Part shown: piece by piece, positions 6,227 through 8,094 of the stretch
How the letters are laid out: every line of letters begins with the position of its first letter
Numbering within the stretch: the stretch's first letter is position 1
Source of the DNA: a virus
Taxonomy: Duplodnaviria > Heunggongvirae > Uroviricota > Caudoviricetes
Reading direction: 5' to 3' (one strand)
IMG/VR virus record: IMGVR_UViG_2690316346_000015
Location: 1 to 9,991 of that record
DNA length: 9,991 nt
The notes under the pieces: model-generated
What the model was told of the DNA's origin: nothing
The model's database searches: none
Seen by the model: the letters and a program-made list of their open reading frames with translations, nothing else
Position numbers and translations under genes: made by a program

Positions 6227-8094
6227 TCATGAAGAAATCGCTCTGACCATTCCGCGATAATCCAGAGCAGCAACGCCAGCATCAATGCGGACCTTCCAGG
6301 CCACACCGTCAACAATAAAGCCCTCCTGCTGCTCAAGGTAAGGCTCGTCATTACCGTCAAGATAAGCCACCTCAATTGTGTCCGTTCCCTGTGCTGAAAG
6401 CATGTACCATTGCTTATCACTGACTTCATCAAGGCGGGGATCGACAATAATATCCAGTTGTTTGTGGTACGGGTTATATGAACCACTGTTTGTATCGGCA
6501 CCGAAAGGCGTGGTTGAGTTAACCATTTGCAACGCTCTGTCTTCCAGAGCCGCAGGAACAAGAAGGAATTTTGGCACAATATTCAGCACCTCACCGTTTT
6601 CATCCCTCTGTGTGCGCATTGCACGGCGTGCAATGCCAAGCCCTGTAGTGCTGACTCCGTTATCAATATCATTTCCGTGTTTTTTGCTGAACAGCGGTAT
6701 ACCGTCAGAAAGCTTTGTGTTTCCTGTCAGCACCAGATGAACCAGATTACCCACCGTTCTGGCGGCTGCTCGCCCCATTGCCTGTGGGATAACTGTTAAC
6801 TGATTCAGGTCATCGTTAATAATCGCCTGTCGGGTAATGCTGAAAATATTTCCGTAAGTTGCCAGCGCGATTGGTTCGCCACGGTCACTGGTGGTGATGT
6901 ATTTATATTCCGCGCCTTCCGGCACTTTGTTTAATGTAGAGAAGCCATTCAGGCCAACACGACGTGCCTCATGGAAGTTTGACAATGAACCTTTTTTCGT
7001 CCACTGGCGGAACGTTTCGCCGCTGTGTTCACGGATTTTTCAGCACCACCAGCAAGGATATAAGTAAAATCGCTGCTGCTGTGGGTGAATGCCGCGTTTA
7101 CTATCTGCGAGCGTGTGCTGTAGCTGCCTGTGCTTATGCCGCGATGGGTTAATGATGCCTGTGCCATATCGAAAAGGCTCATCATGGCGTAAGGGTTGCC
7201 GCGTTCTGCCTGTTCATGTCCCAGACGCGCATTAAGCCCCTGACGCATTGCATCGCCGGTTATGTTGCCGTTATCCGTGTACGCGTAGTAAAGATTTGCG
7301 GGGGTGGTTTTGTTTGTCGGTGTCGATTCTTTACCCATAGTGAGTAAAAGGCGTTCGCGTGCATCCTCAACGCTACAGCCTGAATCAGCAAGACAACTTA
7401 TAGCCAGGTCGTTATATCTTCCATTGAACGTGCCAAACAATTCACGTATCCCGTTGAGTCGTTCCTGTTCTCCGCTGCCAGTTTTCTGGCTGATCATGCT
7501 TTTAATATTTTCCGGCATATTCGAAAAATCTCCGATTCGTTTTGATTCAATTCTGGCCATTGCTGTAATCGCGGGTATAACCTCATCTGCGAAGCCATTA
7601 GCCTTACACTCATTGCCATCCATCCAGGTTTCCGCCTCCATCATGGCGGTGATTTCCTGTTTGCTCCTGCCCGTTCTTCCGGCGTAGGTTTCCGCCATCG
7701 TGTCGCCCAGCTTGTCCATCAGGTCAGCAAAGCGGCGAACGTCGCCCGACACTCCGGCAGTAACACCACGGGGGGCATGTATCATCATCATCGCGTTTTC
7801 AGGCATAACGATGTGATCGCCACACATGGCAATAAACGAGGCCATAGAAGCCGCCATGCCTTCAATGTGTACAATTTTCTTTGCCGGATGATTTTTCAGG
7901 GCGTTATAGATAGCCAGCCCTTCAAAGATGTCGCCACCAGGTGAATGGATGCGAAGATGGATTTCAGGCACATTACCGCACGCGTTGATCTCGTCAGTAA
8001 GTGCCGATGCTTTTACACCGTACCCGCCGATCTCGTCATAAATGCGTACATGTACAACATCAGCCATAGCCTTAATGGAAAACCATGTTTTCAT
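6227..8094 (-). pseudogene. second prohead protease-major capsid fusion gene, diverged paralog, frameshifted near 6985-7040
   Basis: ORFs 6949-8094 and 6227-6985 together align with the intact 637-aa protein and share its motifs (MAASMAS, MMMIHAP). Nucleotide comparison with 1560-1610 shows a net deletion of about 11 nt after GAACGTTTCGCCGCTGT, shifting the frame. Confidence 0.7.

Follow-up and report, generated by a model that had tools for sequence, protein, structure and literature searches.

Gene content of the window and the split fusion gene cap2

The window, by which we mean the whole 9,991-nt stretch of DNA that was analysed, contains parts of two islands, island 1 (1-5493) and island 2 (5494-9991), with all of the genes relevant here on the minus strand (Table 1). 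Island 1 is 99.7% identical to an island of about 11 kb in E. coli CFSAN064035, which carries int, HTH, Icd-like, DUF4222, primase and HEPN genes, a ClpP-like protease/capsid fusion, a DUF1441 gene and a 93-aa gene. Island 2 is 91% identical to a second island type, that of E. coli RM10410, consisting of a primase, a small gene, SSB, another small gene, a protease/capsid fusion and a 93-aa gene. We refer to the fusion gene of island 1 as cap1 and to that of island 2 as cap2. A conserved element of about 100 nt resembling lambda cosN, made of a GC hairpin and T-run followed by TCCTCCTGGTGGGGGTGGCCTGTCCACGGGGCGGG…CGGCGCGGAAAAA, lies upstream of the DUF1441 gene of island 1 and, in island 2, upstream of the 93-aa gene, a position like that in the cos-rpp arrangement of PICIs. 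Two copies are present in island 2, one on either side of the capsid gene. Separately, the HEPN ORF of island 1 encodes 180 aa vs 237 aa in the E. coli copies, and the DNA alignment is gapless, so that a substitution must have made the premature stop.

Table 1. Coordinates of the features discussed in the text (positions in the window).
Feature	Position	Strand	Description
cos-like elements	628-727, 6110-6209, 8627-8726		see text
cap1	746-2659	-	intact 637-aa protease/capsid fusion of a different island; reference paralog
HEPN ORF	3012-3554	+	180 aa
Iteron cluster, island 1	3882-4102	both	GGTGAACAGT; twin of the island-2 cluster; directly 3' of the island-1 primase; presumed replication origin
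Primase ORFs	4117-5499 and 9722-9991	-	D5_N/DUF5906/Pox_D5 domain assignments
Island-2/island-1 junction	5493/5494		end of island 2 (5494-9991) meets the 5'-truncated primase of island 1 (1-5493)
cap2 downstream frame	6227-7039	-	-1 relative to the upstream ORF; remaining HK97-fold capsid domain
cap2 upstream ORF	6949-8094	-	381 aa; ClpP-like prohead protease, linker/scaffold region, first ~25 capsid-domain residues
cap2 upstream ORF, tail	stop at 6949-6951	-	25 out-of-frame codons (NTAAKRSASGRKKVHCQTSMRHVVLA), then the stop
A_AAA_AAG heptamer	6997-6991	-	in-phase X_XXY_YYZ in the upstream frame; A6 run at 6992-6997
Deletion junction	7029-7032	-	13 nt GCTTGCCGGATGG absent between 7031 and 7030
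Iteron cluster, island 2	9471-9691	both	GGTGAACAGT; just 3' of the primase; presumed replication origin
Island-2 primase, C-terminal fragment	9722-9991	-	Pox_D5 part

cap2 (6227-8094) is a fusion of a ClpP protease, a linker and an HK97-type capsid domain that is split into two consecutive ORFs. In the upstream ORF, Pfam assigned PF00574 (CLP_protease, E = 3.7e-33), and the translation contains both the Ser motif GMAASMAS and the His motif MMIHAP; database records list the identical 381-aa sequence as 'protease/scaffold protein [Shigella sonnei]'. For the protease domain of the fusion, ClpP structures in the PDB were matched with E of about 1e-17. The downstream frame opens just past a TGA at 7042-7040 and its first in-frame start is a TTG at 6985, which gives an ORF of 252 aa (6227-6985). 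This TTG is preceded by only a weak AAGG and lies 34 nt upstream of the stop of the first ORF. PF25209 (Phage_capsid_4) was found in the downstream part with E = 1.5e-49, covering profile positions 43-262 only. Just past the cap2 stop, a GGCGGCAGCAGCCGCC-TTTTTT hairpin on the minus strand is plain in the sequence itself, and it was not listed by a terminator consensus scan.

As a reference we used cap1, which gave PF00574 with E = 1.8e-35 and PF25209 with E = 1.4e-53 at residues 335-634. Its DNA is 68.7% identical to that of cap2 over 1399 nt and the proteins are about 60% identical, with a single gap; the second copy is indeed, as the first-pass annotation had read it, a diverged paralog in which a small deletion has broken the frame. 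Modelled with AlphaFold2, cap1 has a mean pLDDT of 72, mostly 80-90 in the capsid domain, and a Foldseek search with the model returned HK97-fold phage capsids, encapsulins and ClpP, with target-normalised TM scores of 0.5-0.64 for the capsid-type matches.

A 13-nt deletion interrupts the capsid domain

Alignments with cap1, with the E. coli RM10410 ortholog and with an intact S. sonnei allele described below all put the deletion at exactly 13 nt. The first-pass annotation had thus recognised a real loss and underestimated its size, as a net of about 11 nt. The ancestral sequence reads TCCGT, then the deleted GCTTGCCGGATGG, then GAACAC; the placement of the junction is ambiguous by 1 nt (a G), and flanking microhomology amounts to at most 1 nt. 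The missing bases complete a Val codon and encode Leu-Ala-Gly-Trp, the equivalents of L360-W363 in cap1, among which L360 and G362 are near-invariant across 70 homologs. Once the 13 nt are restored, no second stop or frameshift is found in cap2. An additional in-frame length difference of 9 nt near the 3' end is seen against RM10410 only.

The split had been placed between the protease-linker region and the capsid domain; its actual position is further downstream. The capsid profile begins at cap1 residue 335, about 25-30 residues upstream of the cap2 break, and the profile match in cap2 resumes only at position 43, so that the break falls inside the capsid domain. In the cap1 model, a predicted helix of the N-arm (347-364) has L360-W363 at its C-terminal end; this helix precedes the first β-strand and is well ahead of a long helix (443-466) that we take to be the spine helix of the modelled fold. 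Measured against this model, the downstream 252-aa piece starts too late to include the N-arm helices or the whole of the first strand.

The junction also contains a GTGAACA (7026-7032), flagged earlier as iteron-like and perhaps coincidental. GTGAACA occurs 19 times in the window vs 1.5 expected, and 17 of the 19 copies fall in the two clusters of GGTGAACAGT iterons (8-9 per cluster), which follow the primase gene in each island; PICI origins are known to lie 3' of the replication initiation gene (PMC6092414). The two solitary copies, at 5389 and at the cap2 junction, compare with a chance expectation of 1.5. The junction copy was created by joining GT to the ancestral GAACA and does not match the full 10-nt iteron. 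An iteron at this position was consequently rejected on the count of solitary copies, and coincidence is what the data bear out.

The deletion is polymorphic within S. sonnei

An exact-match search for the truncated 381-aa product gave at least 1000 contigs and 2,904 collection blocks. Among them is the finished genome of S. sonnei Ss046 (CP000038.1), whose annotation calls one piece 'putative protease/scaffold protein' and the other 'unknown protein encoded within prophage'. Six S. sonnei loci, among them that of Ss046, are 99.93-99.96% identical to the window over 5494-9991 at the DNA level and encode the exact split product.

With the E. coli orthologs as a guide to the missing codons, we rebuilt an intact cap2 protein of 626 aa and searched for it by exact match. 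This protein was found verbatim in S. sonnei, on 113 contigs and in 196 blocks (for example CP032523.1), under the name 'ClpP-like prohead protease/major capsid protein fusion protein [Shigella sonnei]' (P0242 in our set). In this allele, as in cap1, protease, linker and capsid parts are in one continuous frame, and in the window cap2 they are not. Five of six intact S. sonnei loci match the window cap2 at all 1868 shared positions, and in these five the 13 nt are the sole difference; the sixth (L069) is one base off. The E. coli orthologs are likewise intact, as 629-aa proteins, so that the examination of orthologous islands that had been proposed at the outset did turn up whole genes in both species. 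Of the complete E. coli genomes, 137 carry the gene, and all of these have 184 nt where the window has 171. Because none of these shows the gap and because the deleted residues include the near-invariant L360 and G362, the intact allele is ancestral and the deletion is derived and recent; both alleles occur in S. sonnei. An exact-match scan of the GTDB species representatives for the deletion junction gave none and is uninformative, since S. sonnei has no separate species genome there. Within the collection the deletion allele outnumbers the intact one. This is accounted for by hitch-hiking in a clonal pathogen, and a gain from losing cap2 is a possible cause.

Apart from the deletion, cap2 looks selected: dN/dS relative to E. 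coli RM10410 was 0.14 for the protease, 0.09 for the linker and 0.12 for the capsid part. The two halves of the gene have diverged to different extents. The capsid half (6227-7030) is strongly divergent, with 81% nucleotide identity to the RM10410 ortholog vs 98% for the protease half, a pattern that indicates a probable recombination breakpoint within the fusion gene. The best nucleotide identity of this capsid allele in complete E. coli genomes is at most 82%, and in species representatives it reaches at most 63% at the amino acid level; no close relative was found outside S. sonnei and Shigella-type records. A homolog search with the 252-aa C-terminal part missed known 85%-identical 629-aa proteins and is therefore uninformative on intact genes with this allele. 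Divergence of the capsid part by decay after the deletion was ruled out by the dN/dS of 0.12, and the divergent part is a mosaic allele under purifying selection.

The two islands probably belong to separate loci

The window corresponds to positions 63-10053 of the public draft contig CXEQ01000074.1 (GCA_001258815.1), with 9990 of 9991 bases the same; the exception lies exactly at 5493/5494, where the public contig has a single N. Other single Ns in this contig and in a sister assembly also lie at anomalous junctions, and in an independent assembly, 100% identical over the shared stretch, a contig ends 22 nt from 5493/5494. At this junction island 2 ends earlier than in any other copy, and the first ~147 codons of the island-1 primase are missing; the truncated primase read from a GTG start (460 aa) had no match, and the 451-aa version with an ATG start was matched. 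In the other loci read, both finished and draft, island 2 is located between cspD and clpS, and islands of the island-1 type between rcnR and thiM. The tandem adjacency of the two islands is thus most likely a scaffolding artefact, and no biological reading of a tandem satellite pair is warranted, since it rests on the scaffold join. Site-specific insertion of island 2 into the island-1 primase, a nesting of the kind described in PMC10111431, was considered and ruled out by the truncated island-2 end and the N at the junction. cap1 and cap2 are copies in two separate satellites of one genome.

The cap2 island is a decaying PICI-type element

In strains with an intact cap2, the complete island between cspD and clpS comprises an integrase gene (int, 412 aa), alpA, DUF4222, a 596-aa primase, SSB and the fusion gene. 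The PICI layout, namely an integrase at one end, alpA, unidirectional genes, a size of ~10-20 kb and a specific att site, is present in the orthologous loci (L067 and L003 for the cspD-clpS site, L015-L022 for the rcnR-thiM site) and not inside the window, and a primase followed by an iteron-bearing origin occurs in both islands. In gene order (int-alpA-...-pri-ori-late genes), size and site-specific integration the islands agree with Gram-negative PICIs of the EcCICFT073 type, to which we assign them on sequence grounds. In three further loci (L006, L013 and L014), related islands lie directly against late-gene fragments of helper phages (the GpA_nuclease part of a terminase and a lambda E-type capsid gene), which look like the helper-embedded PICI configuration of PMC10111431.

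The island of the deletion lineage carries further lesions. An IS1 is inserted between int and alpA, and an IS3-family element lies within the primase gene, just beyond the end of the window (9991). A 1-nt insertion at 9737, absent from the intact island of S. sonnei, changes the primase stop from TAG to ATA and adds four codons. In Ss046 there is a further IS21 near the right end of the island. Since the IS1, the IS in the primase gene and the lost primase stop codon are found in the same lineage, the whole element appears to be immobile and decaying.

Probable inactivation of cap2 and alternative readings

Taken together, cap2 is very probably a recently inactivated late gene of a Gram-negative PICI, that is, an ordinary lineage-specific pseudogene undergoing neutral decay. 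The intact gene would be copied from lambdoid helper phages of the Gifsy-2 type, in which the capsid gene is likewise 'tripartite'. In one S. sonnei lineage, which includes Ss046 and the source of the window, a 13-bp deletion removed Leu-Ala-Gly-Trp and part of the Val codon, and with the resulting frameshift translation ends 25 codons later, yielding a protease/scaffold stub. The leftover capsid domain has neither a proper start nor its N-arm. With the IS1, the IS in the primase gene and the loss of the primase stop, the island would be an immobile, decaying remnant in which the cap2 lesion is one more instance of neutral decay. The deletion, its direction, its polymorphism in S. sonnei, the domains and the decay of the island are seen in the sequences; a loss of function and an absence of selection on the split are what we infer from them, and residual function of either fragment is possible.

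A functional fission would mean that the 381-aa protein and a 252-aa capsid protein without N-arm are both made and have acquired a new role, such as the poisoning of helper capsids. Both ORFs are long and otherwise undamaged, protease/scaffold and coat are encoded apart in many phages, and satellite capsid homologs can interfere with helpers (SaPIbov5 Ccm, cited in PMC6092414). However, the split form is one mutational step from an intact allele of the same species, with no compensating changes, the downstream ORF has nothing better than the TTG with its weak AAGG and encodes no N-arm helices, and the island is riddled with IS elements and has no intact primase, which makes induction and replication unlikely. 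We consider such a fission very unlikely.

The probability is slimmer still that -1 frameshifting, leaky or programmed, at the A_AAA_AAG heptamer rescues a fusion protein, in which case the split would be no null allele but a regulated or 'savior' arrangement. The A6 run that had been noted just downstream of the junction is present, and the upstream-frame codons at this point are CGA AAA AAG, within a 93-nt overlap of both frames. The phase of the heptamer is correct, and a -1 slip there enters the capsid frame, with a predicted product of 622 aa and a predicted junction peptide …SASGRKKGSLSNFHEAR. In E. coli, A_AAA_AAG ranks with the most efficient -1 motifs (PMC4066793), and a comparable run, C_AAA_AAA, rescued single-nucleotide-deletion constructs in this species (PMC1851650); adventitious frameshifting of the 'savior' type is reviewed in PMC5009743. 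Against this, even the most efficient V_VVA_AAG motifs reach only ~0.3% frameshifting when no stimulator is present, and an optimal 3' context raises this to ~3.7% at the most (PMC4066793). Stimulators of the canonical kind were not seen around the cap2 heptamer: the first predicted helix downstream starts ~13 nt past the motif, outside the canonical spacing of 5-9 nt, and no SD-like element was recognised on reading the sequence upstream at the distance found in dnaX. In the minimum-free-energy fold, A_AAA_AAG is itself in a hairpin loop.

The history of the motif also argues against a selected shift site. In the intact allele its bases are in-frame AAA AAA (Lys-Lys), the slippery phase arose from the deletion, and the heptamer, being ancestral Lys-Lys codons, was not selected for shifting. 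The two-frame arrangement is not conserved, the closest relatives reading the bases as Lys-Lys in a continuous gene, and cap1 has no such A run at all. In the shifted product, VNTAAKRSASGRKK replaces VLAGWEHSGETFRQWTKK, with the loss of the near-invariant L360, G362, E368 and T374. The site shares with the dnaX-type -1 site the same in-phase A_AAA_AAG heptamer and a -1 frame leading into a long ORF; unlike dnaX, it has neither an SD-like element nor a hairpin at 5-9 nt, and its phase was made by the deletion. Slippage-based regulation, which had been left open earlier, is thus unsupported in spite of the in-phase heptamer, and adventitious 'savior' frameshifting could occur here at a low level. 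The chance is smaller again that rare slips yield a near-full-length fusion with a scrambled N-arm segment of 14 residues and that this product, or the stub, poisons the assembly of Gifsy-2-like capsids and was for this reason maintained in the dominant S. sonnei lineage.

Finally, a sequencing or assembly artefact hiding a continuous cap2, also raised in the first-pass annotation, has next to no probability: the window does stem from a draft assembled from short reads, in which scaffold joins occur elsewhere, but the exact truncated protein is present in many independent assemblies including the finished Ss046, the loss of 13 nt in non-repetitive sequence is an atypical platform error, and the same pipelines assembled the intact allele correctly elsewhere (CXFA and CXDA records).

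Discussion

Fusion of protease and coat genes is known from Gifsy-2 (PMC12315714), an observation that PMC8814770 and PMC12315714 attribute to a 2010 report (Virology 402:355). cap1 and the intact cap2 have the same order of ClpP-like prohead protease, scaffold-like middle part and HK97-fold coat. In locus L006, a Gifsy-2-like prophage with a 675-aa fusion gene adjoins an island of the cap1/cap2 kind. Unlike in Gifsy-2, cap1 and cap2 are in satellites of ~10 kb without portal, terminase or tail genes, and the window cap2 is frameshifted.

The presence of a capsid gene in such islands is in line with what is known of the family. The major capsid gene is the commonest late gene of GN-PICIs, in 21 of 29 reference PICIs (PMC10111431), the catalogued PICIs include some whose late gene is a CLP_protease gene (PMC10111431), and GN-PICI capsid genes are dispensable for helper-assisted transfer (PMC6092414; PMC10111431). 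EcCICFT073 (c1499/c1500; PMC6092414) resembles the cap2 island in its int, alpA and DUF4222 genes, its primase with an iteron origin downstream, its late zone with a capsid gene and its cos-like element; it differs in having lambda E-type coat and D-type decoration genes, whereas the cap1 and cap2 islands have the fused protease/coat type. The cf-PICIs are also satellites with an HK97-fold capsid protein and a protease of their own, and are described as encoding all proteins for capsid making and DNA packaging (bioRxiv 10.1101/2022.09.08.507074). In contrast, neither the window nor the intact island L067 contains portal, terminase (terS, terL) or connector genes, and judging by this gene content the cap1 and cap2 islands would not be cf-PICIs.

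The combination of a lineage-specific small deletion with IS1 and IS3-family insertions in one accessory element resembles the pseudogenes and IS decay of Shigella. Such IS-driven decay is typical of this genus. The inactivation of cap2 points to no new mechanism. For annotation, it means that the 'protease/scaffold protein' and the 'prophage protein' of S. sonnei records are very probably one PICI late-gene pseudogene, and within this species the 13-nt deletion can serve as a clean marker of the lineage. More generally, the case shows the speed at which a satellite island decays once its host lineage gathers IS elements.
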